A stretch of DNA of 64,000 nt, taken from an uncultured Clostridia bacterium. Lineage in GTDB: Bacteria > Bacillota > Clostridia > TANB77 > CAG-508. The notes beneath the pieces are model-generated. The model saw only the letters and a list, made by a program, of their open reading frames with translations. It did not search any database and had not been told where the DNA came from. Positions within the stretch are counted from its first letter, which is position 1, and each line of letters starts with the position of its first letter. Location of the stretch: NCBI GenBank assembly GCA_947632185.1, contig CANROH010000001.1, positions 15,142-79,141 on the forward strand, written 5' to 3'. Below, one piece after another: positions 15,640-61,105 of this stretch. The position numbers and the translations under genes are program-made.

Positions 15640-15890
15640 AATAATATAAAAAAGCCCTTATACGTTAGTATAAGGGCGAATATATCGCGGTACCACCTTT
15701 ATTAATAATTATTTTATAATTATTCTCATTTTATTGCTATAACCTGCAACAACTCGGTCTTAGTTTTCTAAGAAACATTTAAGAGTAGATTTCATAAATT
15801 TTTTTTATCTATTTCCACCTATCATAGACTCTCTATAAAAAAATAATTTATTACTTATCTCTTATCAAACGTTTTCTTTCTTATGGAAAT
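15640..15890 (-). promoter_or_regulatory. T-box riboswitch leader (tRNA-sensing antitermination) upstream of DUF1653-serS
   Basis: Minus strand carries the conserved T-box sequence AAAGGTGGTACCGCG (plus coordinates 15686-15700). It is followed by a terminator hairpin GCCCTTATA-CTAACG-TATAAGGGC and a U-run (15646-15677). An AGAGA motif sits near the 5' end and a candidate UCU specifier is present. Confidence 0.75.
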
Positions 15891-21105: not shown

Positions 21106-23430
21106 TTACATAACCAAAAAACTACCCAAATATATTTGCATATATGGTATTAAAACTATAATTATAAATAATAAAATTGAAATTCCAACAGCTCCATAAG
21201 ATATTTCTGGTAATATTTTTAAAATTCTATCAACTTCTTTTTTTATCTCTTTATCTAGATAATTAATTAGTTCCTGTATAATTTCTCTTGATTGAACATT
21301 AAAACCTTTTTTTAACATTTCTATAGTCATTGGATCTAATAATTCTTCATTTTCAAAAGAAGTAAGCCATGATTTTCCAACATAAATATCATTAATTGAT
21401 TTTTCAATCAAATCTAGCATATATACATTATTTATTACACTTTTGCTTATTTCTAAAGCATCTTGAATTCTGACTTTTGTTTGTAAATTTAGAAATATAC
21501 TACGTATAACTCTTGAAAAATCCACTAAAAACTTTATCCTACCAAATAAAAAATTAGTATACTTAAATTTATCAAACTTGTATTTTCCAGTATCAGTATT
21601 TATTAATTTAATTAATATTGCAACAATTATAGCAATTAATAAAACTACTATATACCAATGTTTTGCAAAATATCTTATTGAATCTATCACAAATAAAGTT
21701 ACTTTAGGCACATAAAAATTATTTCCATATGATGAAAAAACATTTTGAATACTCGGTATTCCAATCAATATTGCTAATATCAAAGTTATAAAAATACCAC
21801 AAAATAATATTATATTTGGTAACAACTCATTTTTTATTGTATTTTTTATTTTTTCTTCATCTTCTAGATATGTTATACAATACTTTAATGATTCATCTAG
21901 TGATTCAGTTAATTCTCCTGTTTTTATTAAATTTACATATATTTTAGGAAATATATTTTCATGTTCTTTCATAGCCTTATAAATATATTTTCCGTTATCA
22001 ACATTTTTTAAAATATCCTTTAGGGCTTCTTTTAAATATGAATTTTCCGTTTTATTTATAATTGTAAGTAATGCATGGCTATTTGTAAAATTTGATTTTT
22101 TTAATAAATAGAAATTCTCAGTAAATTCTCTAATATCTTTCAATCCAACTTTATTTGAAAATTCTATTTCATAATTTTTATCTATATTTATTTTTAATGT
22201 TTTCGTTTTTTTAGATTGAATTACATTTGTATACTTTTTATTATTTAACTTAAAAATTGAAAAATATGATTTTATACTTATTGGCGTCATTCCATTTCTC
22301 TTTATTTTTTTTATACAAGCAATTTTATCCTTTTCTTGCATCTTTATTTTTACAATTTGCCCTTGTGGAGTTATTACTTTACAAATAAAGTTAGACATAT
22401 TTCCTCCTTTCTTTTTTCCATTTATATTCCGTATATCTATTGGAGCAAACTTCGTTAAATTAAATGTTTTATAATATTCGTCTTGAGTATCTCCTAGCTT
22501 TCTCCAAACTCCATAAATACCTTCAAAACTACAATCTGGTGAAACATCGGCTATTTCTTCTTGCACTCTATTTAAATATAAATATTTTCCATTTTGATTT
22601 AAAAATCCCATTCTTATACATCTTTTTCCTGTACCATATCTAAAATAAGCAATATTATCTTTTATGGAGAAATTTGGTATCCAAACATACATATAATTAG
22701 TTATATTTAAAATGTAACCATTATAATTTACTACATTTTTTACTTTACCAGTTTCATCTATAAAAAAATCTTTTAAATTATCTGCATCTTTAGCAAAAAC
22801 TACTACTTTAGCCCATTTTTTTGCATAATAATTAAACCATTCTTTATCATCCTTCGTTGTTGTTACATATTCTTTTGTATTATCTAAATATTTTATTGGA
22901 ATAATATCATAGTCGTAAGTATTTATATTTAAATCTTTAAAGTATTGATCATTAATAATAGGACTATTATACTCTTTTACATTTTCTCTTTCAATTGTAC
23001 TTGAAAGAGTAATATTTTGATTTTGGTTATTTATTTCATAATTAATTATAACTGAAATATTTTTTGCAATATCAAAATCAGAATTAGAATTTTCTATTAT
23101 AATTTTTGCCTCGTAGTCTTCAGGTATACTTGTTCCAAAAAATGTTCCTGTGAAATCTTTTCCAGAAACTATTATATTTAAAGCATTATTTTCAAGTGTT
23201 TTTGAAATACCAATAGACGATATTTGTTCTATATATTGCTCTATATTTTCATAACTTCTTGTTTTTATATTCTCTAAAATATTACTAGCAATTGTTGTTG
23301 CATCAATTTTCTTAGTAATATTTTCTTTGTATAAGCCAATTTCTAAACACATTAAAATAATAATGCTAAATATACATATTGTAATTATTAAAGAAAAAAA
23401 TATTTCTAATGGTACTATCTTCTTTTTCAT
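21106..23430 (-). CDS. pilC: 774-aa in-frame fusion ORF: N-terminal pilin-like or TM-anchored domain (aa 1-344) + complete type IV pilus platform protein PilC/GspF (aa 345-774)
   Basis: The C-terminal 430 aa hold two T2SSF repeats and 3 TM segments. The N-terminus is MKKKIVPLEIFFSLIITICIF plus a ~300-aa globular domain. A strong internal SD (AAAGGAGGA) lies 7 nt before Met345 (ATG at 22398). Confidence 0.8.
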   Translation of the reverse strand: MKKKIVPLEIFFSLIITICIFSIIILMCLEIGLYKENITKKIDATTIASNILENIKTRSYENIEQYIEQISSIGISKTLENNALNIIVSGKDFTGTFFGTSIPEDYEAKIIIENSNSDFDIAKNISVIINYEINNQNQNITLSSTIERENVKEYNSPIINDQYFKDLNINTYDYDIIPIKYLDNTKEYVTTTKDDKEWFNYYAKKWAKVVVFAKDADNLKDFFIDETGKVKNVVNYNGYILNITNYMYVWIPNFSIKDNIAYFRYGTGKRCIRMGFLNQNGKYLYLNRVQEEIADVSPDCSFEGIYGVWRKLGDTQDEYYKTFNLTKFAPIDIRNINGKKKGGNMSNFICKVITPQGQIVKIKMQEKDKIACIKKIKRNGMTPISIKSYFSIFKLNNKKYTNVIQSKKTKTLKINIDKNYEIEFSNKVGLKDIREFTENFYLLKKSNFTNSHALLTIINKTENSYLKEALKDILKNVDNGKYIYKAMKEHENIFPKIYVNLIKTGELTESLDESLKYCITYLEDEEKIKNTIKNELLPNIILFCGIFITLILAILIGIPSIQNVFSSYGNNFYVPKVTLFVIDSIRYFAKHWYIVVLLIAIIVAILIKLINTDTGKYKFDKFKYTNFLFGRIKFLVDFSRVIRSIFLNLQTKVRIQDALEISKSVINNVYMLDLIEKSINDIYVGKSWLTSFENEELLDPMTIEMLKKGFNVQSREIIQELINYLDKEIKKEVDRILKILPEISYGAVGISILLFIIIVLIPYMQIYLGSFLVM

Positions 23431-23502
23431 AACTTTTCCTTATATCTTATATTTATACTAAATTAGGCATATACATAAAAAGTATATGCCTATTATTTTC
23501 AA

Positions 23503-23679
23503 TTATTGAGCAATAGAAGAATTGTCTATAGCATTATTACTATATTCTTTATCTTTAATTTCTAGTTCATAATTATCAATATTTTGTATAACTGTATATG
23601 TTGCAGCAGCTGCTATAAGTAGCAACACTAGCATTAATACAACAAATTTAAGTAAAGTTAACCCTTTTTCAGATCTCAT
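23503..23679 (-). CDS. short type IV pilin-like protein (58 aa) with class III signal MRSEKG|LTLLK
   Basis: GGAG SD. Leader ends in Gly, followed by a 21-residue hydrophobic helix. Position +5 is Lys rather than the usual Glu. Confidence 0.5.
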   Translation of the reverse strand: MRSEKGLTLLKFVVLMLVLLLIAAAATYTVIQNIDNYELEIKDKEYSNNAIDNSSIAQ

Positions 23680-23691
23680 ATTATTACTCCT

Positions 23692-24081
23692 TTATCTTGA
23701 ATTTTTATTTGCTTGAGTAGTATTTGTTTTTTCAGAATTTTGTGGTTCTAATATTGGTTCAGCTTGATTTGTATATTCATCAAATGGATTATCCTTTCCA
23801 CTTTCATAAGAACTTTCTGAAGCATATGATGCTAAATCATTTTGACTTATACTATAAGATTTTAATAAAGAACTTGAATCATCACTTTTAACATCGGTCT
23901 CTGTATTTGAATGAATTTCTTCAAGTGTTTTAACAACATCTTCATCTTGAATATACTCTATCGATACAAGTTTTTGATTATTTGATGAAATAGAATCATA
24001 AAATAATACTATAAGCATAAACATTATTATTACTGCAAGCAATATAGTTATAAATATTTCTTTCAATTTTTTATGCTTCAT
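23692..24081 (-). CDS. single-pass membrane protein with acidic, Ser-rich tail (pilus-cluster accessory, PilP-like?)
   Basis: Start MKHKKLKEIF is preferred because it has an AAGGAG SD. The ORF-track start at 24135 overlaps pilO. Confidence 0.5.
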   Translation of the reverse strand: MKHKKLKEIFITILLAVIIMFMLIVLFYDSISSNNQKLVSIEYIQDEDVVKTLEEIHSNTETDVKSDDSSSLLKSYSISQNDLASYASESSYESGKDNPFDEYTNQAEPILEPQNSEKTNTTQANKNSR

Positions 24082-24100
24082 AAGATTATTCTCCTTAATA

Positions 24101-24763
24101 CTAATTTCCTGAATTTTGATTTGATGTGTCAACATTAGTTGTATATGATGTTGGAATTTCAGATAAATTTTTGCTATTTATTGGTATTCTTTGAACAGTA
24201 AAAGTTGCTTGTAAATTTTCTCCACCTTTTTCCATTAAAAAATCATTTATTTCAAAGTTTAATTTTTCATCATCTTCTAAGCTAAATATAAAATTTGTTA
24301 TAGCTGTATATTCTCCTGTTACTGTAATATTTAAATCACACATTACATATTCTGAAGATTTTGAATTTTCATCAGAGTTTTTTACTGTATCAAGTTGAAG
24401 GACAACTCCATTTCGTGTTGCATATCCTCCTATATTAGTTAATAAAAAGTCATAATCATATAATTCCATAGAACCATTTAAATCATTATTTTGTATCTGC
24501 CCATTTGCGACAAGTTTATCATATTGTGATTTTTTATTGTTATATTCTTGAACAGCTGTTTTTAATGCTGATTTCTTTGTATTAAACTCTATATCATTTT
24601 TATAATTTAATTCAGAAATCAAATTGTTTCTTTTAGTATTTGCAACTTGTATTTCTCGATAACTACTTATTTTGTAATTTCCTATTTTAAATCCAAAAAA
24701 CATAATCAAGAAAAATAATAATATAAAAATAATTAACATAAGATTCAATATATATTTTCTCAT
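24101..24763 (-). CDS. pilO: PilO-like type IV pilus biogenesis protein
   Basis: N-terminal TM, coiled-coil, C-terminal PilO-like fold. Overlaps the pilMN stop by 4 nt. Confidence 0.6.
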   Translation of the reverse strand: MRKYILNLMLIIFILLFFLIMFFGFKIGNYKISSYREIQVANTKRNNLISELNYKNDIEFNTKKSALKTAVQEYNNKKSQYDKLVANGQIQNNDLNGSMELYDYDFLLTNIGGYATRNGVVLQLDTVKNSDENSKSSEYVMCDLNITVTGEYTAITNFIFSLEDDEKLNFEINDFLMEKGGENLQATFTVQRIPINSKNLSEIPTSYTTNVDTSNQNSGN

Positions 24764-26349
24764 TTCAAATCCCCCTCTATGGTAATTTGAACTAATGAAT
24801 CACTTTTTGTACTTGGCGTTGACTTAATATTTGCAAGTGTTCCATCTGATTTTATTGCCGCAAGAAAATAACCTAATTGTTCATATTTCTCTGAAGTTGC
24901 TTGTATAACAATATGATTATTCTCTACATTTTCTATAGATATGATTTGGACTTGTTTAGGTATTATCGTCATTATTTTCTTTAGCATATTTGGAATTGCA
25001 TCTTTTGAAATAACTCTACTATTTTTTGAATTATTATTTGCTTCACTTAATGAATCTACACTTCCTATAAGTGAATTATAAGCATTTATATAACTTTCTA
25101 TTTCAGAAAGTTCACTATCCATCTTTTCTATCTGCTTACTAGATTCTTGAAGTTTTGCTTGAGCTTCTTGTATTTTTAAATTAGTTTTATTCAAAATATA
25201 TCCACTAGCAATTGAAAATCCAATAATAGCAATAATACAACATCTTATTGCTCTTAATACAAGTTTTTCTTTAGCATTAAAAGGCTTTTTAAATTCTGAT
25301 CTTATTCTATTAATATTAAATTTTTCATTAGAATGAACAATACTATTAATTTTAGAGCTTGGTGCAAAATTCAAATCTTTATTTATATATTCTAATCCAT
25401 CTAAAGCAAGTGCAATTGCTGAATTAACTTCTATATATTCTTTTTTAGATATATCAAAAAGTTCTTGAGATACAAAAAATGGTTTCAATATTTTACATTT
25501 TGTATTCTTAAATTCTTCTTGAAAATACAAGTCTATATTACCAATAGTTGCACCAAGACCAGTTATATATATGGTATCTATTTTTTCTTTAAAATTACTA
25601 AATACTCTTTGTGCTTCTCTAATAATTCTTGATATAGTAGGTATTATTAAATCTATATATTCATTTTTATTTTCATCAATATTATCATCATTTATAATAG
25701 TAGTTTTAAAAACATTATACGTTTCTTTCCATGATAATCCTAGTTTATGAATTTTTTCAATTATGCTTTCTAGTCCAGCATCTAAAATATCAACTCTGTT
25801 TATTTGTTTATTAAATATAGTAGTAATTTTAGTTTCATTTTCTATATTTATAATAGCAATATTTTCATTATCATTAATTTCAACAAGATTTGTTATACTA
25901 GTTGAAATTGGTGAAATAGAATATAATTTATAATCTGACAATATTTTTGAGTTTGAATAAATTTCACCTTTATTTGCAGATATATATAGAACTTTATATT
26001 TATCACGATCTTCTTCATTATTTACTAATATATATCTTGATTCTAGAGATTTTTTTGCATATCCTTTATCTTGGCATAACATTTCAAATTCTATATTTAG
26101 AGCTTTTGTAATATCCTTTCTTCCAAGTCCTGAAAAAACATTAAAATAATTATATAATTCATTTTTAATGTTAATACTAATAGGCGTTTTTTGGCTATTT
26201 GTCTGATTAATAACTTTTTTCAAAGTCAATTCTAAATTATCAAAAACTTCTGTATTAAAGCTCTCTACTTTAAATGTATTATTGTCTTTTCTCAATTTAG
26301 CATATTTTATTAGGTTTTTATCAATAAAAATACCTAAACAACTTGACAT
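24760..26349 (-). CDS. pilM: PilM-PilN fusion protein (actin-like ATPase domain + TM/PilN domain)
   Basis: MSSCLGIFIDKN PilM N-terminus with an AGAGGGG SD, and a C-terminal TM plus coiled-coil PilN-like region. The ORF-track start at 26472 has no SD. Confidence 0.8.
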   Translation of the reverse strand: MSSCLGIFIDKNLIKYAKLRKDNNTFKVESFNTEVFDNLELTLKKVINQTNSQKTPISINIKNELYNYFNVFSGLGRKDITKALNIEFEMLCQDKGYAKKSLESRYILVNNEEDRDKYKVLYISANKGEIYSNSKILSDYKLYSISPISTSITNLVEINDNENIAIINIENETKITTIFNKQINRVDILDAGLESIIEKIHKLGLSWKETYNVFKTTIINDDNIDENKNEYIDLIIPTISRIIREAQRVFSNFKEKIDTIYITGLGATIGNIDLYFQEEFKNTKCKILKPFFVSQELFDISKKEYIEVNSAIALALDGLEYINKDLNFAPSSKINSIVHSNEKFNINRIRSEFKKPFNAKEKLVLRAIRCCIIAIIGFSIASGYILNKTNLKIQEAQAKLQESSKQIEKMDSELSEIESYINAYNSLIGSVDSLSEANNNSKNSRVISKDAIPNMLKKIMTIIPKQVQIISIENVENNHIVIQATSEKYEQLGYFLAAIKSDGTLANIKSTPSTKSDSLVQITIEGDLK

Positions 26350-26513
26350 TATTTTTCCCCTCTTTATTTTTGTATATATAAATATGTAAAAAAATTCCAA
26401 TATATCAAAATATATATATTTACATGTATATTTATATATTGTTTTACTTAAAATGTCAATATATTTACGCATTCAAGAAATAAATTTAACAAAAATGTAA
26501 TATTTTTTTAAAA

Positions 26514-35758: not shown

Positions 35759-37345
35759 CTATACTGTTCTATTTTCAGTATTTTCAAGCTTTTCGGAAAC
35801 ATCTTTTATTTTCATCATTTTCATTATAAAAAACAAAAATATGTATATAATTATTGCAATTATAATTGCTAATACTGTACAAATTGTATAGTTTATATTT
35901 CTTAAAATAAGTAATCTATAAAAATGCATTGAACTAATTATCATAATGACACTTGCTATAGTTGGTTTTATTAATAATTTAAATATACTTTCATCTAAAA
36001 ATATATTTTTTTTCATAATAGAATATGCAATTATAAAAGATATAAAATTCGACATTATATTTCCTACAATTGCACCCTTTTCATATACACCAGCAATAGG
36101 AATTAATACTATATTACAAATAATTTTTACTATTAATCCAATTGTAGATAAATATACAGATACTTTATTTTTTCCAATTCCTTGTAAAATTCCATATATT
36201 GTTTGAGTAATCATTGAAAATATTATACTTATCGAAGCTAAACTTAATAAATTATATCCCTCTTGAGCTTTAGGAAATAATAAACTAAAAATAGATTTAG
36301 AATAAGCAAACATTCCAAAGGTACACGGAATTGCAATTATTATTGTCATAGTCAAAGATTGTTTTATTTTTTCGATTATTCCATTAATATCATTTGCTGC
36401 TTTTTTTCTAGATATCTCTGGGATTAATGCAGTAGAAATTGCTATATTAAATGATAGTGGCAATGCTATTAGTGCATCTACTTTAGAGCTTAGTATACCA
36501 TATTTTATTTTGGCTACTTCTTCACCAACAAATTTTTTTAAAATTCTAACAACAGTAACTGAATCAATATTTTTTCCAAATGATGATAATATTGCACTTA
36601 TTGTCATTGGTGTAGAAATCGACAATACATTCTTAATTATATATACTATTCTCTTTTTTTCATATATTATTCCATCAAGAACAATATCTTTTATTTTAAA
36701 GTTTATATATTTTATAATAATATAAATTAAACTAATAAATGTTGCTATTGTAGTAGCAAAATTAGCAAATGCAGCCATTATTTCTGTGTCATTATTAGTC
36801 AATTTAGAAACTACTTCCACAAATATTATTGTAAGAACTGTTTTAAATAATTGTTCAATAAATTGACATTTAGCTGTTATATATATTCTATTATCACCAT
36901 TGCAATATCCCTTTATAACTGAGTTTATTGAAACAAAAAATATTGCGGGTGCTAAAAGCATTAAACTAAATTTTGCCTCAGGAATATCTAAAATATTTTT
37001 AGATATAAAATCAGCTCCCAAAAAAAGTATTATGCATCCAATAAAACCAATTATAGCAAATAAAAATATTGATATTTTAAAAGTTCTTTCTAAATTTATA
37101 TAATCCTTTTGGGATTTTTCCTCTGATATTATTTTTGATATTGCGTTTGGGATTCCTATCGAAGAAATAGTTAATAATAGTGCATAAATTTGGTATCCAC
37201 TCATATATATAGCATTTCCTTCGTCCCCAAAACCAGTCTTATTAGTCAAATATAAACTATATATTACCCCAAAAATTTTTATTAATACCTGTGATACTAC
37301 TAAAGACACAATTCCTTTAATAAAATCTGTAAGTTTGATTTTCAA
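35759..37345 (-). CDS. MOP-superfamily polysaccharide/PG-precursor flippase (SpoVB-like)
   Basis: 528 aa with 14 TM helices. Has the typical Wzx/SpoVB architecture. Confidence 0.7.
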   Translation of the reverse strand: MKIKLTDFIKGIVSLVVSQVLIKIFGVIYSLYLTNKTGFGDEGNAIYMSGYQIYALLLTISSIGIPNAISKIISEEKSQKDYINLERTFKISIFLFAIIGFIGCIILFLGADFISKNILDIPEAKFSLMLLAPAIFFVSINSVIKGYCNGDNRIYITAKCQFIEQLFKTVLTIIFVEVVSKLTNNDTEIMAAFANFATTIATFISLIYIIIKYINFKIKDIVLDGIIYEKKRIVYIIKNVLSISTPMTISAILSSFGKNIDSVTVVRILKKFVGEEVAKIKYGILSSKVDALIALPLSFNIAISTALIPEISRKKAANDINGIIEKIKQSLTMTIIIAIPCTFGMFAYSKSIFSLLFPKAQEGYNLLSLASISIIFSMITQTIYGILQGIGKNKVSVYLSTIGLIVKIICNIVLIPIAGVYEKGAIVGNIMSNFISFIIAYSIMKKNIFLDESIFKLLIKPTIASVIMIISSMHFYRLLILRNINYTICTVLAIIIAIIIYIFLFFIMKMMKIKDVSEKLENTENRTV

Positions 37346-37518
37346 ATTTTCCTCCTAATACTCTTTTATCCTAATTGTATTATCATTTTATTTATATATT
37401 CATTAGAATATATAAATTTTTCTTAGGGAAATCAGTGTTTTTTTATTGAAAATGCTTGATTTTTTTCTAATTTTGTTAGATAATATATATGTATATTATT
37501 GTAAAAGGATGTTTTATT

Positions 37519-39870
37519 ATGATAATGAAATATATAGATATTTTTTTAAAGAAATTAAAAACAGATAGAAATACATTCGCAACATACATACTAACTTTAA
37601 TTTCAATATACATATGTGTAGATAGATTAGTTGAAGTATTGCTTATAATATTTTCTGGTTTATCTGTTTCTTATTGGGGACCTATAAAATATACTCTTGC
37701 AATGGCATGCCCAATATTTGCATTTTATTTTTCATTTGCATCAAAATTTGTAGAAGATAAATATACTAAACTTTCATTTTTTTATACATATGTAGTAGCA
37801 CTGTATATAATATTTATGTCAATGATTGTACAATGGATTAATCACATTGGTTGGTTACTTTTATTTTCTGTACCAAATTATTCTTATATAATTTCTACAT
37901 TTATGGATTTAATAAAACCTGCATTTTCAGCATTTGCATGGTATATTCCAATATGTAGCTTTTTCCCATTAGTAAAGTGGATTTTATTAACAGTTGATGA
38001 TACTTTATATATTAAAGAATCTATTTGGGATTATGGTGGAATAGATTTATCTGATAAATCTATTGGTATGGGACCTTATACTTGTGAAATGTTTTTATGT
38101 AAAGATTATGAAACTGGAAAATCTATAGTAACACCTGAATCTAGGAGATTTGAATCAACATTAATTGTTGGTGTTTCTGGATCTGGAAAAACTTCCATGA
38201 TGTTTGAACCAATGATTGCAAGAGACCTAGAGAAAAAATATTTCTTTAGAGAAACTTCTAAAGAATTAGCATTCACTGCATTAAAAACAAATATTGCTAC
38301 TTTAAATTCACCTTACTCTAATGACTACATAAATGAAAACTTTAGTTTAAATATGATTAGTCCAGTTTTAAGTAAAGAAAAGATATTTAAAGCTTATTTT
38401 TCAAAATTAATTTATAATTATAATGGTGCTAATACTATTTATAAAAATCTTGGAATTACATATATGGCACCTGATTATGAATCAATTACTCATATAAAAG
38501 ATGTTGCTAGCAATTTTGGTATAAAATATAATGTAGTAGATCCAAGTGATAATTCTTCAATTGGGCTAAATCCATTTACTTATGAAGATCCAATAAAAAC
38601 TTCTATAGCAATTTCTTCTATATTAAAGAGAATGTATGCTTCTGGATCTGTTCATGAGGCTGGTTCAGAAGAAGAAGCATTTATGCAAAACATAGTTACT
38701 CAAGCAATAGAAAATTTAGTATTAATGTTAAAAGAAGTTTATCCTAGATTACATGATGGTTTACTACCAAATCTAGAAGATTTATTAGATTTATTAAATG
38801 ATTTCACTTTAATTGAAAAAATGGCTGAACAGATGAAACAGTTCCCAGATTTAGCTGAAAAATATAAAATACAATTAGGATATTTTAAGAAAACTTTCTA
38901 TAAAACAGCACATGACAAGGAAACTACAGAAAAATATTTACAGGCATCTGCAGCACAACTTGAAAATCTACTTAGATATCCTGGTGTAAGAAATATTTTA
39001 TGTAATAGAACAAATAATATAAATTATGATAAAGCATTAGAATCAGGTGATATTACTTTAGTATGTACTAGACGTGGAGATTTAGGAGCTAGTGTTCATA
39101 AAGCATTTGGTCTATTCTTCCTATTACTTATGCAGCAATCTGTTCTATCTAGACCAGGAAATGAAAAAACTAGAATTCCACACTTCTTATATATAGATGA
39201 ATTTCCACCTTTCATTTGCAAACCTACTGAAGATATATTTACATTATATAGAAAATATAGAGTTGGAACAATTATATCATCTCAAAACTTATCACAATTT
39301 GGAATAAATAATGATTATAATTATAGACAAACAATTATGGCAAACTGTACAACAAAAATAGTATTTGGTAATAACACCCCAGAAGATAACGAATGGTGGG
39401 AAAAAGAATTTGGTGATAAGAGACGTTGGGTATTTACACATGATTATGATACAGATAAAGGAAAATACTCTGATACTTATAAATCAATTAAGTGGGAATG
39501 GATTAAGAACTTTAAAGCTGGAAAAATCCAAGCAATGAAATTCAAAACAGTTATTTATAAAACAAAGGATTTAAAAGGAAAGAATCTTGTTGGTCAAGCA
39601 AAAATTGATTTCTTGGAATCAAGATATAAAGAACCACAAAAGATTAAATCTTTTGACTTTAGTAGATTTGGAGGAGCTGTAAATCCAGCTACTACTGAAG
39701 AACATAAATCAAGACCTAAATTTAATTTGAATAATATTGATTTTCATAGTAATCCAAATAACCCAAATGATATGGATCCAATTCAAATGAATACATCTGA
39801 TGAAAAATATAAATTTAATAATGAAGATGCAATAACATCTTACAATTCAAATAATGATTCAAATGAATAA
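37519..39870 (+). CDS. divergent TraG/TraD/VirD4-family (type IV coupling protein-like) P-loop ATPase with 5 N-terminal TM helices
   Basis: Walker A GVSGSGKTS at ~aa 227 and Walker B HFLYIDEF about 340 aa later, so the nucleotide-binding domain is split by an alpha-domain insertion. SSQNLSQFG Q-motif and an Asn/Asp-rich C-tail are present. Start moved to MIMKYI, which has an AAAGGA SD. Confidence 0.7.
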   Translation: MIMKYIDIFLKKLKTDRNTFATYILTLISIYICVDRLVEVLLIIFSGLSVSYWGPIKYTLAMACPIFAFYFSFASKFVEDKYTKLSFFYTYVVALYIIFMSMIVQWINHIGWLLLFSVPNYSYIISTFMDLIKPAFSAFAWYIPICSFFPLVKWILLTVDDTLYIKESIWDYGGIDLSDKSIGMGPYTCEMFLCKDYETGKSIVTPESRRFESTLIVGVSGSGKTSMMFEPMIARDLEKKYFFRETSKELAFTALKTNIATLNSPYSNDYINENFSLNMISPVLSKEKIFKAYFSKLIYNYNGANTIYKNLGITYMAPDYESITHIKDVASNFGIKYNVVDPSDNSSIGLNPFTYEDPIKTSIAISSILKRMYASGSVHEAGSEEEAFMQNIVTQAIENLVLMLKEVYPRLHDGLLPNLEDLLDLLNDFTLIEKMAEQMKQFPDLAEKYKIQLGYFKKTFYKTAHDKETTEKYLQASAAQLENLLRYPGVRNILCNRTNNINYDKALESGDITLVCTRRGDLGASVHKAFGLFFLLLMQQSVLSRPGNEKTRIPHFLYIDEFPPFICKPTEDIFTLYRKYRVGTIISSQNLSQFGINNDYNYRQTIMANCTTKIVFGNNTPEDNEWWEKEFGDKRRWVFTHDYDTDKGKYSDTYKSIKWEWIKNFKAGKIQAMKFKTVIYKTKDLKGKNLVGQAKIDFLESRYKEPQKIKSFDFSRFGGAVNPATTEEHKSRPKFNLNNIDFHSNPNNPNDMDPIQMNTSDEKYKFNNEDAITSYNSNNDSNE

Positions 39871-39878
39871 ACTTAAAA

Positions 39879-39910
39879 GGCTCTTAGAAAATAATCTAAG
39901 AGCTTTTTTT
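39879..39910. terminator. rho-independent terminator between convergent T4CP-like gene and purB
   Basis: ggctcttag-aaaataat-ctaagagc hairpin followed by TTTTTTT. Confidence 0.65.
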
Positions 39911-39946: not shown

Positions 39947-41494
39947 CTAAACAGATACTGTTGTTTCAATTTCTTTTACCCATTCTGAATTTTCTTTTAA
40001 TAGTGGAAACACTTCATTTTCTAAATAATCAGTTACTTGATTACTAGATCTTCCAGTAAGTTTTTTAGCATTACAAATTGTTTTTATCTCATCCATAGTC
40101 ATTCCAAAAATTGGATCAGAAGCAATTCTTTCAAGTAAGTCATTATTTAATCCATCTCGCTTAATACGCTTTCCTGCCTCTATAGAATGAATTCTTATAT
40201 GTTCATGAAGTACTTGTCTATCTCCCCCTTTTTTTACAGCTTCCATAATAATATTTTCAGTAGCCATAAAAGGTAATTCTTCAGCTAACCTTTTTTCAAT
40301 AATTTTATTATTAATAACCATACCATCAATAACATTTCCAACTATTATAAGCATTCCTTCACAAGCAAGGAATAATTCAGGAAGACTTATCCTACGATTA
40401 GCAGAATCATCAAGTGTTCTTTCAAACCATTGATCTGATGCAGTATCAATTGGATCATGTATAAGCGTATTTACATGTCTTCCTAAAGCAACAATTCTTT
40501 CACTACGCATTGGATTTCTTTTATAAGCCATTGCAGAAGATCCTATTTGATCTTTTTCAAAAGGTTCTTCGATTTCCTTATCATGTTGAAGCATTCTTAT
40601 ATCTTTTGCCATTTTAATACTACTCACAGAAATTGCAGATAAACAAGCTGCTACATCTACATCTAGGTTTCTTGGATAAGTTTGACCTGAAATAGAATAT
40701 ACTTTTTTAAATCCAAATTTTGATGCAATAATTTCATCTAATCTTTTTACTTTTTCTTCATCATCTTCAAAAATATCCATAAAAGTTGCTGATGTGCCTG
40801 TTGCTCCACGACACCCCAGCATTTTAAGTGTAGAAATAACATAATCGAGTAATCCTAAATTATTTACAAAATTTTGAAGCCATAAAGCTTCTCGTTTTCC
40901 AACTGTAACTGGTGATGCTGCTTGATAATGAGTATATCCAAGTGTTGGAATATCTTTGTGTTTATTTGCAGAATCAGCCAAAAGCTTAATTACTCCTAAA
41001 AGTCGTTTTCTAATAATAAATAATGCATCACGCAAATTCAATATATCAGTATTATCTGTTACATAACATGATGTAGCTCCCCAATGAATAATTCCCTTTG
41101 CCTTAGGGCAAAGATCTCCATATGCCTTCACATTAGCCATAACATCATGACGAACTTGTTTTTCATATGTAGCAATAGTTTCATAGTTTATATCATAAAT
41201 ATGTTCCTTCATTTCAGAAATCATTTCATCTGTAATTTCTGTTTTTCCAAGTTGCTTTTCAGCTTCTGCTAAAGCTATCCAAAGTTTTCTCCATGTAGAA
41301 AATTTTTTGTTATCAGAAAAAATATACTTCATTTCATCACTTGCATATCTTCCAGATAATGGTGTTTGATAAATATTTCTTGTTTGATCTATATATTTTT
41401 TTATTTCATCTGTATATTTTTTATCTATTGGTGTTTTTTTATTAATTTCTGTTTTACTCATAATTTTAGTCCTCCTAATATTTTTATAGAACAC
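39947..41494 (-). CDS. purB: adenylosuccinate lyase PurB
   Basis: Long-form PurB with fumarate lyase signature (GSSAMAYKRNP). Confidence 0.9.
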   Translation of the reverse strand: MFYKNIRRTKIMSKTEINKKTPIDKKYTDEIKKYIDQTRNIYQTPLSGRYASDEMKYIFSDNKKFSTWRKLWIALAEAEKQLGKTEITDEMISEMKEHIYDINYETIATYEKQVRHDVMANVKAYGDLCPKAKGIIHWGATSCYVTDNTDILNLRDALFIIRKRLLGVIKLLADSANKHKDIPTLGYTHYQAASPVTVGKREALWLQNFVNNLGLLDYVISTLKMLGCRGATGTSATFMDIFEDDEEKVKRLDEIIASKFGFKKVYSISGQTYPRNLDVDVAACLSAISVSSIKMAKDIRMLQHDKEIEEPFEKDQIGSSAMAYKRNPMRSERIVALGRHVNTLIHDPIDTASDQWFERTLDDSANRRISLPELFLACEGMLIIVGNVIDGMVINNKIIEKRLAEELPFMATENIIMEAVKKGGDRQVLHEHIRIHSIEAGKRIKRDGLNNDLLERIASDPIFGMTMDEIKTICNAKKLTGRSSNQVTDYLENEVFPLLKENSEWVKEIETTVSV

Positions 41495-41595
41495 TTAGAA
41501 CATTAAAATTTTATCATAACTTTTATTAAACATTCAACAAAATAATAAAAAACTTATACAATAAATTTTATTTATTATATAAGTTTTTAACTTAA

Positions 41596-42531
41596 TTACT
41601 CTAATATTTTAAATTCAACATTTTTAGCTGAAAACTTTCCTGTAGTTTCATCTTTTACAAATTCAGTTAATGATTTATCTAAGCTTTCTGAATTTTGTTT
41701 TAAGTCTGTTGTAAAATAAATTTTTATTTTTTCCAATTCCAATTTATTTTTTACCATTTCTTTAAATGTCTCAACCATATGTTTTTCATCTTCACAAACT
41801 AATATTAATTGTGGTCTTGTTTCATATTCTGAATCAAATTGAACAAAATTCTCAAGAAAATCTTTGTATAATCTCATTCTCTCTACAAATTTTTCCTGCC
41901 AATCATCTTCTCTTCTAACACATTCAAAGATTAAACTTAAAGCTTTTCCTCCTTTTGATATTTTTACTTCCCCATGTCCCTTAAAAGTTTTTGCACTCAT
42001 TTTAGCAGTAAGAACTGTTTTTACTTTATATGAATCAAAATTCTTAGCCTTTCTCATGTATGCAATTATAACTTGATTTCCAGCTAATCTTTTTTTAATA
42101 AGAGCTACTGGTTTTGTATTATCTGTAGGTTGCCATTTACATTCAATTTCTTTAGCATTTAGTAAATATTTACCCATTTTTTCCATGCAATAAACTCTAT
42201 AAATTCCTTTTCCTTCTTCAGAAGTAAAATAATATCTTGTTAATATTTTTGTTTTTACAAGTTGTTCTAATTTTGTATTTAATTTATCCTGTGATTTTAT
42301 TTCTACTCCTCTGTGTGTTAAAATTTGAAAAATTTGTCTTGAAGTTAAAAATTCAAATTCATTTACTAAATCTAGTATTTTGAAATGCACATCCCCAATA
42401 TGACCAAGGTTAATTTTATGGATAATTTGATTTATAGATACATATCCATCCTTGCCATCAAATGTCTTTATTTCTCCTTCTCTAATAGCGAATGGAGAAA
42501 CGGTAGTTTTAATTTCTTGATCTTCTACCAT
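41596..42531 (-). CDS. hypothetical protein with N-terminal winged-HTH-like segment; weak resemblance to replication-relaxation family
   Basis: 311 aa. Sits 14 nt downstream of the S1-domain gene, so it is operonic with housekeeping genes. AT-rich hairpin terminator downstream. Confidence 0.5.
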   Translation of the reverse strand: MVEDQEIKTTVSPFAIREGEIKTFDGKDGYVSINQIIHKINLGHIGDVHFKILDLVNEFEFLTSRQIFQILTHRGVEIKSQDKLNTKLEQLVKTKILTRYYFTSEEGKGIYRVYCMEKMGKYLLNAKEIECKWQPTDNTKPVALIKKRLAGNQVIIAYMRKAKNFDSYKVKTVLTAKMSAKTFKGHGEVKISKGGKALSLIFECVRREDDWQEKFVERMRLYKDFLENFVQFDSEYETRPQLILVCEDEKHMVETFKEMVKNKLELEKIKIYFTTDLKQNSESLDKSLTEFVKDETTGKFSAKNVEFKILE

Positions 42532-42545: not shown

Positions 42546-43349
42546 CTAAACAATTAAAAGTTTAATTTTTTTTCTTTCTTTAATAATCTTTTTTATATAA
42601 ACATTTACTTTTTGTCCATATTGTAAATTTTCTTTATACTCAGCAAGGCCAACTAAATTCGGTTTAAGTTCAATAAAAATTCCATTCTTAAACTTATCTG
42701 CTTCTTTTACAATTCCTTCTACCACTGTTTTTTCTTTATACTCAGTTATATTTTCATCCCAGTCTCCAAGCAATTCCTTATATGATAGTATAACCTTACC
42801 ACTATCTTTGTCAATAGATTTTATCATAACATTTATTTTTTGTCCAATATAAAATCTTTCTTCTGGAGATTTTATTCTCGATATAGAAATATCTTCTATA
42901 TGTAAAAGTCCAACTATTCCTCCACCGATTTCAACAAATACTCCAAACTTTCTCATATTCTTTACAATGCCATTTACTACTACTCCTGGTTTTAATTCTT
43001 TTTTTACCCACTCAAGAGCATCTTTTTGTACATTTTTTCTCGAAAGAATAACTTGTTTATCATTATATATTTCTTTAATTTTAAATTGAACAAAATTATT
43101 TACTTTATTTTTACAAATACCTGTATTGCAAAACCCATATTGGTCTACATTAATTTCTTCTAATTCATTTCTTGGTATTATTCCATTTATATTATTTCCT
43201 AGATTAATATGTAAATTAAAGTTTAAATCACATTTGTTTACATATCCTTGAAGAATTTGTCCATCATTTAAAGCTTTCTTCAGTGATTCTGTATTCAATT
43301 CATCCTTTGTGTTTTCCCAACCTTCTGGAATAAATTTTTGATATTCCAT
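42546..43349 (-). CDS. S1 RNA-binding domain protein (three S1-like repeats)
   Basis: Repeated GxV...G S1 motifs; 267 aa. Confidence 0.75.
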   Translation of the reverse strand: MEYQKFIPEGWENTKDELNTESLKKALNDGQILQGYVNKCDLNFNLHINLGNNINGIIPRNELEEINVDQYGFCNTGICKNKVNNFVQFKIKEIYNDKQVILSRKNVQKDALEWVKKELKPGVVVNGIVKNMRKFGVFVEIGGGIVGLLHIEDISISRIKSPEERFYIGQKINVMIKSIDKDSGKVILSYKELLGDWDENITEYKEKTVVEGIVKEADKFKNGIFIELKPNLVGLAEYKENLQYGQKVNVYIKKIIKERKKIKLLIV

Positions 43350-46336: not shown

Positions 46337-48106
46337 TTATTTAACAAGTCTTTCGAAAACTTTAAAATAATCATCTGAATAAATCATATTATAGTCAGAA
46401 TCATCTTCTAGAATCATAGCTAATTTAGCATTTTCATATAAAATAACATGTGTTACTCCATATTCTTCAAACTTATCTTTGTAATTTAAAGCAAGTCCAG
46501 CTATGTCTAAAGCATCTGAGAAAATATCTCTTCCATCATATTTTTTTGTTTCTTCATTATATGTTCCATTAAATTCAGTTGAATATAAATCACATCTTGA
46601 ATCTATAAATACTGGTATTCCTCTAAATAATAAATAACTACCATAATTATATTCATTATACAATCTTATATTTTCTACATCTAAATTACTTAAAATCCAA
46701 TCTGCTGCATCTACTGGATATGAAGATTTATCTATATAATCAGATTTTAATGTTGGTTTTATTATTTTAGTACATCCTATAATACATAAACAAATAATAA
46801 CTGTTGCACCAAACCATCCAGTTGCCATGCGTTCAAGCTTTTTAAAAGTATCTTTATCATATTTAGCAACCATTTGTGCAATTAAAGTAGCTAATATTGG
46901 TCCACAAAATATTGCAAACATTGATACTTGTCTTCTTGATTTAAAAGACAAAAATGTTATTCCTGCTAACATAAATAAATCTGATAATTTTATTTTAGTA
47001 TCTGTAAAAATCAACACTATTAAAAATATGACTATTGAAATTGCAAATTCAGTATTTTCAACTAAAGTTAATGGCAAATGCTCATTTATAGAATATGTTG
47101 TGTTTCCTTTCATTATTTTATATAAGTATGTATAAGCCCCATTTCCAGCAGGATTTAAAAATCCTGTTAAGGCAGCTATTGCCAATATTGAAATAAGAAG
47201 TAAGACAACATGATTTTTAGTTGTAATTATTTTATATGGTTTTTCTCTTAAAATTTGTATTTTTCTCTTTCTTTCAGAAATTGAAAATTGAACTTTTTCT
47301 ATTTTTTGATTATAACGCTCTTTTACATTTTCTTTACGTGCCATTTTTTTTCTTATTTTAAGTATTTGCTTATATAATCTTAGATCTAAGATCCAATCTT
47401 CTAAAACAACTAAAAGATATTCCGCAATATATGGTAAAAATAATACAAAATAAAATGGAAAAACTGCACAATGCAAATTTGCTATTAATAATGGAATAAT
47501 TATTAATAAAATAGCATATCGTTTTTGCTTTGTCTCTAAAAATTTTTCTATTGAAAAAACAGTCCAAGTAAATAATATAAATGTTACAAGTTGAGCTCTA
47601 GCTGCTATAAATGATTTGACTACATACATTGATCCTATCGTTACTATAAATGAAACAACTCTATTTTTTGATTTTTTACATGCTAAAATATATACTGATA
47701 TTCCTAAAATTGCACTAAGTATCATTGTTGAAGCATATATTCCAGCTTGTCCGAATGAATTATATATCATAAAAATTCCTAAATCATAAAGCCAATGTGG
47801 ATATGTATAAGGTAATTCATGCCAAGAAAATAAATCAGTAGTTAAATCTGAAACTCCATTATTATAAATATATTCTCCAATAGCTATAGTATAATAAGTA
47901 TCATTTTGTAAAGTTTTTGGTGCAATTGCTACACTAAAAATGGTTATACATATAATAGCAATTGCTGTAAATATAATACTTTGCCTTTTGCTTTCTTTTA
48001 TTTCATTTTTGTTATCTTCTATTTTTTTAGTATCTATCATTTGATCTTTTCTAGATTCTTCGATATTTTTTTCATTATTTGATTCCATACTAACTCCTAT
48101 ATCCAT
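46337..48106 (-). CDS. large polytopic membrane protein with C-terminal extracytoplasmic domain (GT-C glycosyltransferase-like?)
   Basis: 589 aa, about 12 TM helices. Sits in an operon with lspA and tagA. Confidence 0.5.
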   Translation of the reverse strand: MDIGVSMESNNEKNIEESRKDQMIDTKKIEDNKNEIKESKRQSIIFTAIAIICITIFSVAIAPKTLQNDTYYTIAIGEYIYNNGVSDLTTDLFSWHELPYTYPHWLYDLGIFMIYNSFGQAGIYASTMILSAILGISVYILACKKSKNRVVSFIVTIGSMYVVKSFIAARAQLVTFILFTWTVFSIEKFLETKQKRYAILLIIIPLLIANLHCAVFPFYFVLFLPYIAEYLLVVLEDWILDLRLYKQILKIRKKMARKENVKERYNQKIEKVQFSISERKRKIQILREKPYKIITTKNHVVLLLISILAIAALTGFLNPAGNGAYTYLYKIMKGNTTYSINEHLPLTLVENTEFAISIVIFLIVLIFTDTKIKLSDLFMLAGITFLSFKSRRQVSMFAIFCGPILATLIAQMVAKYDKDTFKKLERMATGWFGATVIICLCIIGCTKIIKPTLKSDYIDKSSYPVDAADWILSNLDVENIRLYNEYNYGSYLLFRGIPVFIDSRCDLYSTEFNGTYNEETKKYDGRDIFSDALDIAGLALNYKDKFEEYGVTHVILYENAKLAMILEDDSDYNMIYSDDYFKVFERLVK

Positions 48107-48277: not shown

Positions 48278-48946
48278 CTAAACAACTACTTCAGTTTCAT
48301 TTTCGGTTTCTTCACTATTTACTATTTCCATACTTGCAATTGAAACTTCATATGCAACTCTTGTTTGACTAGTTCCATCTTCAAACTTTTTCTCATAAGT
48401 TCTTGATTGAACTCTTCCTGTAATTTTTACTTCTGTTCCGACTTCCATATTTTGGCAAAATCTTGCATTTCTTCCCCAAGCTATACTTGGTATGTAATCA
48501 GATTTATTATAAGCTCTATTTACTGCTAATAAAATATCTGCAATTTCTCTTCCAAATGGTGTTTGTCTATATATAGGTTTTTTACAAACATAACCTATTA
48601 AAGTAACTTCATTTGTAATGTCATCTTTTTCATCTGGAGAGTCTTCAATTTCATTAATTTCTTTTGCAAATACTGTTAAAATTAATCTGTTTTTTTCATT
48701 TTCATAATTATTGTAAGATCTAAATTGTCCTTCAACTGTAACCTTTTTTCCTACTTTTAAATCTAAACCTGTTAATAATCTTTCTGATACTGTAATTGGT
48801 ATTATATCTACAGTAGAGCTTAATCTAACAACTTCTAGATTAAAAACATAAAACTTTTCGCCATATATTTCATGACTGTAACTTTTTTCACTTACTATTT
48901 TTCCAACTAATATTAAGTGATTATTTTCTGAATAATTTGTATTCAA
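48278..48946 (-). CDS. SSB-like protein with two tandem OB folds
   Basis: Two repeats of the SSB-type OB pattern (VTVEGQFRS.. and VKITGRVQSRTYE) in a 222-aa chain with an acidic tail. Confidence 0.5.
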   Translation of the reverse strand: MNTNYSENNHLILVGKIVSEKSYSHEIYGEKFYVFNLEVVRLSSTVDIIPITVSERLLTGLDLKVGKKVTVEGQFRSYNNYENEKNRLILTVFAKEINEIEDSPDEKDDITNEVTLIGYVCKKPIYRQTPFGREIADILLAVNRAYNKSDYIPSIAWGRNARFCQNMEVGTEVKITGRVQSRTYEKKFEDGTSQTRVAYEVSIASMEIVNSEETENETEVVV

Positions 48947-59770: not shown

Positions 59771-61105
59771 GTGAAAAGATTTAAATTTTTTATTTTTAAT
59801 ACTTCAGTACTTATTATAACATCTGTTATTTTCAGAGCTATAGATATTTATTTTACAGCATATGTATCTCAAAAAATTGGTTCTGAAAATTTAGGAATTT
59901 ATCAACTAGTAATGTCTGTTTATTTATTTGGTATAACTCTTGCAACTTCAGGTATAAATTTAGCAGTCACTCGCGTTATATCTGAAGAGCTCGCTCTCGA
60001 TAATAATGGGGGCGTTAAAAAAGTTATGAAAAGATGTATTTATATAACCTTAATCACAAGTATTACTACAAGTCTTATACTTTTTGTAAATGCTAATTTT
60101 ATTATAATTAAATGTCTTCATAATAAAGTTAATAAATCTGTTATTTATTTAGTTTGCTTGGCCCTTCCTTTAATTTCAATGTCTTCTGCTATCGCTGGAT
60201 ATTTTGCTGGAGTTCGTAGAATTTATAAAAACGCTATAGGACAATTTATAGAACATATTGCTAAAGTAATAGTTACAGCTTTTATCATTAACTTATATTT
60301 ACCTGCTGGTCTAAATTATGCTTGTTTTGCTTTAATTTTAGGTGATGTAACCTCTGAAATAATATCTTTTGTTTACATATATATAATTTATACATTAGAT
60401 AAAAGAAGATACAATAATTATATAGAAACAACTCAAAAAAAGAATTATACTTATCGTATTGTTAGGATATCAATCCCTATCGCCATAACATCTTATATAC
60501 GTTCTGGACTTTCAACTTTAAAACAATTAATTATCCCTTCTAGCTTAGAAAAAAGTGGAATTAATTGTAGCGAATCATTATCTAAATATGGAATTATAAA
60601 TGGAATGGCTCTTCCAATTATCATGTTTCCTGATATTTTAGTAAAGTCGTTTGCAAGTCTTTTAATTCCAGAATTTTCAAGATATCGTGCCAAAAAAGAT
60701 TTTAAACGTATAAAACAAATGACAGGAATTTTATTATTTTTAATAGGCGGTGCAGCAATTGGCCTTACTTTATTGCTTTTAATTTTCTCAGATGCTCTCG
60801 GAAAATTAATTTATAATGATTTTTCTGTTGGATATTACATAAAAATTCTATCTCCTCTTGCAACTTTCATTTATGTTGATACTGTTGTTGATAGCATTTT
60901 AAGAGGCTTAGATGCACAAGTTGGAGTTATGCTTATAAACATACTAGATTTAGCTATTAGTGTAAGTTTTATTTATTTTTGCGTACCAAAATTAGGCTTA
61001 ATAGGATACCTAATTTCAATCTATATGAGCGAAATTTTAAATTTTACAATAAGTTTATTACAACTAATAAAAATCGTTTACTTCAAAAAAGAACAATCTT
61101 TTTAA
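59771..61105 (+). CDS. MOP-superfamily flippase (SpoVB/polysaccharide biosynthesis protein-like)
   Basis: 444 aa, 12-14 TM helices. Paralogous architecture to the gene at 35759-37345. Confidence 0.7.
   Translation: MKRFKFFIFNTSVLIITSVIFRAIDIYFTAYVSQKIGSENLGIYQLVMSVYLFGITLATSGINLAVTRVISEELALDNNGGVKKVMKRCIYITLITSITTSLILFVNANFIIIKCLHNKVNKSVIYLVCLALPLISMSSAIAGYFAGVRRIYKNAIGQFIEHIAKVIVTAFIINLYLPAGLNYACFALILGDVTSEIISFVYIYIIYTLDKRRYNNYIETTQKKNYTYRIVRISIPIAITSYIRSGLSTLKQLIIPSSLEKSGINCSESLSKYGIINGMALPIIMFPDILVKSFASLLIPEFSRYRAKKDFKRIKQMTGILLFLIGGAAIGLTLLLLIFSDALGKLIYNDFSVGYYIKILSPLATFIYVDTVVDSILRGLDAQVGVMLINILDLAISVSFIYFCVPKLGLIGYLISIYMSEILNFTISLLQLIKIVYFKKEQSF

Follow-up and report, generated by a model that had tools for sequence, protein, structure and literature searches.

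A divergent type IV coupling protein-like ATPase belongs to a conserved chromosomal three-gene module in uncultured Clostridia

Why should an uncultured Clostridia bacterium encode, in the midst of core chromosomal genes, an ATPase resembling the type IV coupling proteins (T4CPs) of conjugation systems? The question is raised by a gene located on the plus strand at 37489..39870 of a stretch of 64,000 nucleotides of contig CANROH010000001.1 (assembly GCA_947632185.1, positions 15,142 to 79,141), which is referred to as the window and to which all coordinates of the locus refer. The original prediction, made from the letters of the DNA, described an orphan, divergent T4CP-like ATPase and considered either a lineage-specific chromosomal function, possibly related to sporulation or competence, or a domesticated remnant of a mobile element. 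Here, we find that the gene is not an orphan. It belongs to a conserved three-gene module, together with genes encoding a protein with similarity to the Replic_Relax domain (RepRelax-like) and a protein composed of S1 repeats. On balance, we lean towards reading this trio as a vertically inherited, domesticated relaxosome-plus-coupling-protein module.

Three Pfam models of T4CPs match the window protein above their thresholds, namely TraG-D_C with 40.6 bits (threshold 22) and, marginally, TrwB_AAD_bind with 22.2 bits (threshold 20.5) and T4SS-DNA_transf with 21.0 bits (threshold 20.1). The homologues of the protein bear the same three domains. In contrast, FtsK_SpoIIIE yielded no match in Pfam or NCBIfam, and DUF87 and AAA_10 yielded none in Pfam. 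The VirD4-like NCBIfam model conju_CD1115 scored 41.2 bits, far under its equivalog cut-off of 250, and membership in this family was rejected.

Searches of PDB chains, performed with the single sequence as well as with a 60-sequence profile, returned no match for the ATPase, and the link to solved T4CPs is therefore seen by fold comparison only. An AlphaFold2 model calculated from 60 diverse homologues (pLDDT 78.7, pTM 0.70) comprises a four-helix membrane domain, a RecA-like nucleotide-binding domain split by an all-alpha insertion, a beta-rich C-terminal domain and a disordered tail. Foldseek comparison of this model with the PDB yielded Cagbeta/VirD4 (8dol, E 2e-11) as the best match, followed by TrwB (1e9s/1gki/1gl6, E ~1e-9, TM-score 0.62-0.68 normalized to the target). 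DotL (6sz9) was likewise among the leading matches, the E-values of Cagbeta, TrwB and DotL ranging from 2e-11 to 1e-7. The lower ranks (E 1e-7 to 5e-5) were occupied by the DndH C-domain, TdpAB, HerA and VirB4, with the HerA and VirB4 structures specifically at E 1e-5 to 5e-5 and hence well below the T4CPs; SIR2-HerA was also found among the secondary fold matches. Entries for FtsK were absent from the top 50. Membership in the FtsK/SpoIIIE family was rejected, as neither a hidden Markov model (HMM) match nor an FtsK structure among the top 50 folds was found, and membership in the HerA/VirB4 families was rejected given the rank of these structures well after the T4CPs and the lack of a DUF87 or AAA_10 match. 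Because the Pfam models, the fold ranking and the invariant motifs described below concur, we regard the window protein, as judged from its sequence and modeled structure, as a genuine but divergent ATPase of the T4CP family, in agreement with the original assignment.

Counted from the first ATG, the open reading frame (ORF) comprises 793 codons. The probable start is located at 37519 (or 37525), which results in a protein of 783 amino acids (aa) with the N-terminus MIMKYIDIF, the length given in the original prediction. Position 37519 is preceded by the ribosome-binding site AAAGGA and agrees with the N-termini of the orthologs, which follow the pattern M-K-(Y/L)-(I/F)-D-K-(F/L)-L-K. The N-terminal membrane domain (37567..37998, plus strand; residues ~17-160) was delineated by hydropathy and the AlphaFold2 model. 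Instead of the five transmembrane helices originally proposed, it contains four long hydrophobic helices (residues 17-46, 55-72, 81-117 and 121-160) plus a short N-terminal one.

The Walker A motif GVSGSGKT (38170..38193, residues 218-225) and the Walker B motif FLYIDE (39184..39201, residues 556-561), both on the plus strand, lie ~338 residues apart, close to the distance of about 340 first reported. Conservation was determined across the 60 diverse homologues, the identity of which to the window protein extends down to 33%. G218, G221, G223, K224 and T225 of Walker A and D560 and E561 of Walker B are invariant in this set, as are Q589, N590, L591 and Q593 of the glutamine motif SSQNLSQ (residues 587-593), which had likewise been recognized. 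The anticipated all-alpha insertion between the two halves of the nucleotide-binding domain was recovered in the model and by alignment to the TrwB and Cagbeta structures (38590..39045, plus strand; residues ~358-509); the Pfam models TrwB_AAD_bind and T4SS-DNA_transf span residues 476-636. Outside the coverage of the Pfam T4CP models follows a conserved beta-rich C-terminal domain (39415..39603, plus strand; residues ~633-695), for which the model predicts strands at 633-644, 649-663, 677-683 and 689-695. In this region F675 and F698 are invariant, and Y680, G687 and G692 are nearly so. The asparagine-rich tail noted before corresponds to residues 720-783 (39676..39870, plus strand), is poorly conserved and is predicted to be disordered (pLDDT <50). 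Directly 3' of the stop codon, an inverted repeat at 39875..39908 forms a terminator-like hairpin, the terminator-like site being scored on the minus strand. Promoter-like matches around the module genes were not above shuffled expectation.

The neighborhood of the gene was then compared among relatives. More than 3,300 close homologues of near-constant length were retrieved, the named sources being 'Candidatus Scatovivens', 'Clostridium sp. CAG:508' and Clostridia metagenome-assembled genomes; within TANB77, an order without cultured members, CAG-508 ranks as a major family (PMC11680825). Synteny was analyzed in 79 species-level loci with flanks of 10 kb. The local order in this set is hup, the spoVB-like gene and the T4CP gene on the plus strand, followed on the opposite strand by the RepRelax-like gene, the S1-repeat gene, rluB, rluD, wecG, lspA, a gene for a 589-aa protein and an SSB-like gene. 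In total, the trio occupies the syntenic site in ~80 TANB77/CAG-508-type species. An HMM census detected the RepRelax-like gene in the T4CP flank in 56 of the 79 loci, mostly directly after the T4CP gene. In the reciprocal census, performed on metagenome contigs from the RepRelax side, 60 loci extended for at least 3.5 kb downstream; 49 of these contain the T4CP gene, the gap between the two genes having a median of 102 nucleotides. Moreover, the S1-repeat gene directly precedes the RepRelax-like gene in 56 of 80 loci. In two loci (L050 and L075) the T4CP gene is inverted and hup and the spoVB-like gene are gone, yet it still lies beside the RepRelax-like gene. Taken together, the coupling protein gene is part of a conserved three-gene module with the RepRelax-like and S1-repeat genes, and the hup/spoVB-like neighborhood is conserved within the order.

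In the window, the first partner is encoded on the minus strand at 41596-42531, beyond purB. The protein of 311 aa begins with a conserved peptide, which is followed by a winged helix and by an alpha/beta domain resembling Replic_Relax. It passes the Pfam threshold for Replic_Relax (PF13814; 26.9 bits, threshold 25.3), the match being restricted to profile positions 1-107, whereas the orthologs in L083 and L075 reach 30-32 bits over positions 1-188 and 1-177 of 191. Replic_Relax is a domain of MOBC relaxases (PMC5357655), belongs to the restriction-endonuclease-like PD-(D/E)XK superfamily and is usually fused to a helix-turn-helix domain (PMC3424549); the MOBC prototype TraX of pAD1 likewise has an N-terminal winged helix (PMC12857230). 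As in MOBC relaxases, the winged helix-turn-helix (wHTH) of partner 1 is N-terminal. The original prediction mentioned this protein for its weak replication-relaxation-like features and stated nevertheless that no relaxase gene accompanies the ATPase. The first remark is borne out by the Pfam score, and the second is misleading, given that this gene is the immediate neighbor of the T4CP gene in relatives.

The C-terminal alpha/beta domain of partner 1 is modeled confidently, and its fold match to FokI is marginal (E 2.5e-3). When chromosomal and plasmid homologues sharing 26% identity overall were compared, R206, E247, H251 and D276 as well as the TSRQ helix were invariant; a classical D...(D/E)xK motif is not assignable. 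Residues 1-32 are predicted to be disordered, yet D4, S12, F14, A15, E20, G26 and K27 are invariant. An invariant N-terminal peptide at this low overall identity suggests a conserved protein contact, and we consider the peptide a candidate docking motif.

The second partner is encoded 14 nucleotides upstream of the first on the same strand (42546-43349, minus strand). This protein of 267 aa contains three S1 (OB-fold) repeats, as indicated by the Pfam model S1, and shows three stretches of similarity to ribosomal protein S1 (E 7e-38). The S1-repeat and RepRelax-like genes constitute an operon that converges on the T4CP gene. A hairpin with a perfect, AT-rich stem of 19 nucleotides is located at 41548-41588, between the end of the RepRelax-like gene and the start of purB, and is likely the terminator of the S1-RepRelax transcript.

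The intervening purB gene for adenylosuccinate lyase (39947..41494, minus strand; Pfam Lyase_1 and ADSL_C) is not part of the module. Among the 79 loci, only the window and L016 have purB here, and it represents a recent lineage-specific insertion between two convergent module genes. Elsewhere, the convergent T4CP and RepRelax-like genes are tens of bases apart or have ordinary genes in between, encoding MMPL/TetR, MiaB-like, RNase G, helicase or leucine-rich repeat proteins and no integrases. The notion that this gap serves as an integration hot spot for mobile DNA was rejected, since the inserted genes are ordinary and integrase-free.

We next asked how the module is inherited. Across the loci, the identity of the T4CP to the window protein tracks the identity of the neighboring proteins, with Spearman coefficients of 0.67-0.87 (RluD 0.83, the MurJ-like protein 0.81, the 589-aa protein 0.87, HU 0.68), and the same holds true for its partners (RepRelax-like 0.83, S1-repeat 0.85). 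The RepRelax-like protein displays a mean identity of 77%, as compared to 70-75% for the adjacent rRNA pseudouridine synthases. These correlations and the conservation of the RepRelax-like protein above that of the pseudouridine synthases point to co-divergence of the trio under purifying selection rather than to repeated transfer. The GC content of the T4CP gene (0.27) lies within the range of 0.22-0.29 over the window, so that there is no shift, and neither an integrase nor VirB4 nor VirB6 was found among the roughly 50 largest ORFs of the window; in these respects the first description holds. Likewise, a repeat scan around the module genes revealed no oriT-like repeat array. The conserved synteny, the correlation of identities with housekeeping neighbors and the lack of a GC shift argue for vertical inheritance of a chromosomal gene that is indeed embedded among core genes, with hup, the SpoVB/MurJ-like gene and purB as neighbors.

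The module extends beyond this order. A scan of 1.84 billion representative proteins yielded 2,723 clusters at E<1e-3 and 115 at E<1e-30, and full-length relatives of the T4CP reach down to ~26-45% identity. In a distant branch, 33-41% identical to the window T4CP, the context is again chromosomal. In L083, the T4CP gene is followed by convergent RepRelax-like and S1-repeat genes, with Mfd, Pth and PolA as neighbors. The same arrangement, with an inserted epimerase gene, is present in L084/L085 beside CtsR/McsB, LexA, rpsF-ssb-rpsR, RNase G and Pth. In L087, the T4CP gene and its convergent partners lie next to Pth-Mfd and a Tad-pilus cluster; this Tad/Flp cluster is located directly upstream of the T4CP gene. 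The arrangement of the trio is therewith kept where the T4CP is only 35-39% identical, amid different core genes. All five chromosomal relatives looked up, including two with tandem T4CP genes described below, reside amid core genes, and no T4CP relatives were found in the IMG/VR viral contigs. The gene is thus not confined to integrative and conjugative element (ICE) or prophage contexts.

A further clue is provided by plasmids. In tblastn searches against 72,556 plasmids, the best matches to the T4CP (28% identity, 90% coverage) and to the RepRelax-like protein (25% identity, 93% coverage) were located on the same plasmids. The S1-repeat protein also has a homologue on the Clostridium plasmids (27% identity), where the homologues of all three proteins are full-length. 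The carriers are the Clostridium botulinum pFWSKR40E1 family (NZ_KT897275-80), Clostridium beijerinckii NZ_CP107023.1, Thermoanaerobacterium plasmids and Bacillus thuringiensis Bt407. The plasmid loci analyzed (L080-L082) derive from C. beijerinckii NZ_CP107023.1 and C. botulinum NZ_KT897278.1. In the plasmid stretches retrieved from these two species, homologues were found for no window ORFs other than the T4CP, RepRelax-like and S1-repeat genes. On the Clostridium plasmids, as in the distant chromosomal lineages, the RepRelax-like gene is directly preceded by the S1-repeat gene. The plasmid T4CP gene is located 7-8 kb from this pair. The neighboring genes encode an actin-like segregation protein, small weakly type IV secretion system (T4SS)-pilin-like proteins, a DUF87/AAA_10 VirB4-like ATPase, a large membrane protein, a C39-type peptidase, DUF3854, Rad52, an SbcC-like ATPase and recombinases. 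MOB-suite typed the carrier Clostridium plasmids as non-mobilizable. The chromosomal T4CPs are 33-67% identical to each other and 26-31% identical to the plasmid T4CPs, which form a separate group.

Since large Clostridium plasmids with a VirB4-like ATPase bear a homologous set of genes, we favor, with modest confidence, the interpretation that the chromosomal trio is a relaxosome-plus-coupling-protein module that became domesticated and has been passed on vertically. Of the alternatives named in the original prediction, domestication is the better one; the term remnant does not fit, as the module is intact and under purifying selection. Mechanistically, the wHTH protein would bind a specific nucleic-acid site and may cut there. 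The S1-repeat protein would then bind the resulting single strand. Anchored by its four transmembrane helices and presumably hexameric like TrwB, the T4CP would receive the nucleoprotein at the membrane and pump it at the expense of ATP. The parts of this scheme that we infer are the substrate, the direction of transport, the exit route, be it a T4SS encoded elsewhere or a pore of its own, and the benefit for the cell. With four long helices modeled for each subunit, a hexamer might form its own pore, as has been proposed for FtsK/SpoIIIE.

Several observations weigh against this interpretation. The partner 1 family resembles Replic_Relax only weakly (25-32 bits), and its plasmid members do not match the Pfam model at all. 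In ~16 of the 79 loci the T4CP gene has no RepRelax-like gene within 10 kb. Neither the 64-kb window nor the 10-kb flanks of the loci yielded genes for a T4SS channel, and hence no exit route is visible. Moreover, two Clostridia lineages harbor tandem T4CP paralogues without RepRelax-like or S1-repeat genes within 8 kb: in L086, proteins of 836 and 776 aa are encoded at 8001-12865 of the locus beside SecA/PrfB, and in L088, proteins of 807 and 766 aa are encoded at 8001-12737 of the locus beside RpoD/DnaG/KsgA/ATP synthase. The ATPase may therefore not strictly depend on its partners.

A bolder version would have the trio act as a self-sufficient machine for nucleic-acid export or transfer, serving as a core function of an entire uncultured order of gut Clostridia and several other Clostridia lineages. 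Here, opening of the chromosome at a specific site would fall to the wHTH/nuclease-like protein, and coating of the single strand to the S1-repeat protein; the hexamer of the four-helix T4CP would form a pore or dock to an unlinked channel, and pump DNA out of the cell. The result would be chromosomally encoded DNA donation, with an outcome like that of transjugation in Thermus, and uptake by neighboring cells might employ the conserved type IV pilus of the order. We consider this version doubtful.

Two further explanations appear unlikely, and to a similar degree. According to the first, the module is a defense or exclusion system directed against plasmids or phages, in which a T4CP/HerA-like motor cooperates with a nuclease-like partner, comparable to DndH, TdpAB or SIR2-HerA. 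The T4CP matches the PADLOC model mad8 (E 2.5e-12, 44.9 bits), the motors of such systems appear among its secondary folds (the DndH C-domain, TdpAB, SIR2-HerA), and the family to which partner 1 is assigned is restriction-endonuclease-like (PMC3424549). The best folds, however, are true T4CPs and not defense motors, and the T4CP is membrane-anchored. No other components of MADS or Dnd systems are adjacent; neither the partners nor two further proteins from the vicinity gave a significant system match in PADLOC, and the remaining neighbors are housekeeping genes according to Pfam. Defense systems are typically patchy and reside in variable islands, whereas the module is syntenic and vertically conserved. 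In addition, its plasmid homologues are found beside a VirB4-like ATPase and candidate T4SS membrane proteins.

The second of these explanations is incidental linkage: the ATPase, alone or with an unlinked partner, would function as a receptor for protein or RNA export, and the S1-repeat and wHTH genes would encode an ordinary RNA-binding protein and a regulator. S1 domains usually bind RNA, the RepRelax-like partner is missing within 10 kb in ~20% of the loci, and the tandem paralogues of two lineages do without both partners. On the other hand, the adjacency survives inversion of the T4CP gene (L050, L075), the linkage holds at 35-39% T4CP identity as well as on plasmids, and chromosomal and plasmid homologues of the wHTH protein, in spite of their low overall identity, have an invariant N-terminal peptide in common.

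Quite unlikely is a role as a DNA translocase in sporulation or cell division, i.e., an analogue of SpoIIIE/FtsK that would move DNA across the septum, with the wHTH protein giving directionality. The host is a spore-former with SpoVA, SipL and YunB encoded in the window, the T4CP gene is core, vertically inherited and divergently oriented to the spoVB-like gene, and the number of four transmembrane helices equals that of FtsK/SpoIIIE. Yet, the fold and the HMMs indicate a T4CP and not FtsK, the plasmid homologues accompany conjugation-like genes, and there is no indication that the carrier genomes lack SpoIIIE. The initially suggested link to sporulation or competence finds no support in synteny either: the spoVB-like neighbor is conserved only within the order, and the distant trios lie beside Pth/Mfd, PolA, rpsF-ssb-rpsR and RNase G.

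Finally, although mobilization systems are known in which a MOBC-type relaxase domain is paired with a T4CP of its own, integrative mobilizable elements (IMEs) encoding relaxases are common in Bacillota (PMC5357655) and plasmid homologues of the module exist, a still-mobile or recently decayed IME using the T4SS of another element is very unlikely and largely refuted by synteny, as the module occupies the same chromosomal site in ~80 species with a divergence that tracks housekeeping neighbors, the locus displays no integrase, repeat boundary or GC shift, the S1-RepRelax pair lies close behind rluB and rluD on the same strand, distant lineages carry the module amid core genes, and no relatives were found in viral contigs.

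How does the putative domesticated module compare with known systems? With the VirD4/TrwB/Cagbeta T4CPs, the window protein shares the RecA-like nucleotide-binding domain split by an all-alpha domain, the Walker A and B motifs and the glutamine motif, as well as an N-terminal membrane anchor and a poorly conserved C-terminal tail. Its identity to the solved T4CPs is only 12-15%. Canonical T4CPs usually have two transmembrane helices, in contrast to the four long ones predicted here. Two additions, an insert behind Walker A and the conserved beta-rich C-terminal domain, further distinguish the window protein from canonical T4CPs; it is also chromosomally encoded, syntenic and vertically inherited, with no T4SS genes nearby. 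FtsK and SpoIIIE, which possess four transmembrane helices, resemble it in being membrane-anchored products of chromosomal core genes with Walker motifs; the T4CP-typical all-alpha insertion and the absence of FtsK HMM and fold matches set it apart.

The pairing of a wHTH and Replic_Relax protein with a T4CP-like ATPase is reminiscent of MOBC modules such as those of TraX of pAD1 and MobC of CloDF13 (PMC5357655, PMC12857230, PMC3424549). The present module differs from these by the marginal similarity to Replic_Relax, the S1-repeat protein as third partner, the lack of an oriT-like array in the repeat scan and its location outside a mobile element. CloDF13 encodes its own T4CP-like protein MobB; the ORFs of its poorly annotated record gave no significant match to the HMMs of the three window families. 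With the trio of the Clostridium plasmids the module has in common homologues of all three proteins and the order of S1-repeat and RepRelax-like genes. The distance of the plasmid T4CP gene from this pair and the nearby genes for the VirB4-like ATPase, DUF3854, Rad52, the SbcC-like ATPase and recombinases distinguish the two. A functional analogy for a channel-independent role, with no claim of homology, is offered by TdtA of ICEth1 in Thermus thermophilus, a membrane-associated hexameric ATPase modeled on HerA and belonging to the same wide group of DNA translocases, which together with nucleases pushes chromosomal DNA from the donor without a classical T4SS, while the recipients use competence pili (PMC5365140). 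TdtA differs in being HerA-like rather than T4CP-like and in being carried on an excising element with integrase and att repeats.

Apart from the module, the window is made up of core chromosomal DNA from a spore-former of low GC content, with genes for UvrC, GlmS, PurA, SerS with a T-box leader, GltX, RNase J, FBPase and SpoVAC/D/E; HU, the SpoVB/MurJ-like flippase, PurB, RluB, RluD, WecG and LspA; and MurD, MgsA, RuvA, SipL and YunB. The spoVB-like gene that adjoins the T4CP gene and is transcribed divergently from it (35759-37345, minus strand) encodes a flippase of the MurJ/SpoVB family, which scores 211 bits on the SpoVB model and thereby remains under the cut-off of 372. A second flippase paralogue of this family (Polysacc_synt/MatE) is encoded at 59771-61105 on the plus strand. 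The T-box leader (15669-15876, minus strand; Rfam RF00230, 97.9 bits) is located upstream of the seryl-tRNA synthetase gene at 14051-15340.

Further along the syntenic block, the protein of 589 aa (46337-48106, minus strand) has no Pfam, NCBIfam, PADLOC, PHROG or PDB sequence match and is kept in synteny across the order with 43-74% identity. The SSB-like protein of 222 aa (48278-48946, minus strand) contains an SSB domain in its C-terminal half only and, along its entire length, strongly matches phrog_26861, a phage family of unknown function (E 2e-36); its gene is syntenic downstream of the S1-RepRelax operon, with 72-90% identity. A cluster at 21106-26472 on the minus strand encodes a T2SSF (PilC-like) protein of 774 aa, a protein of 570 aa that weakly matches PilM, and small ORFs lacking Pfam matches. 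It probably corresponds to the type IV pilus cluster reported to be conserved in and specific to TANB77 (PMC11680825).

In the literature, we found no paper on this trio or on a core chromosomal T4CP in Clostridia. The window protein represents a new, divergent T4CP branch in an unusual non-mobile setting and with an unusual third partner. Genome surveys call ICEs and IMEs by coupling proteins and relaxases, which are taken as signatures of mobile elements. In TANB77/CAG-508 and other uncultured Clostridia, a coupling protein and its relaxase-like partner behave as housekeeping genes do, and automated mobile-element calls in these genomes could consequently mislead. Likewise, the related plasmid systems, which are typed as non-mobilizable and yet encode a VirB4-like ATPase, may represent an unrecognized Gram-positive transfer system. 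The abundance of TANB77 tracks the response to checkpoint immunotherapy (PMC11680825), and the order has no cultured representatives; in view of this clinical interest, conserved and as yet unexplained machinery of TANB77 is worth knowing. For these bacteria, the module may be a clean case of long-term domestication of the DNA-processing machinery of conjugation.

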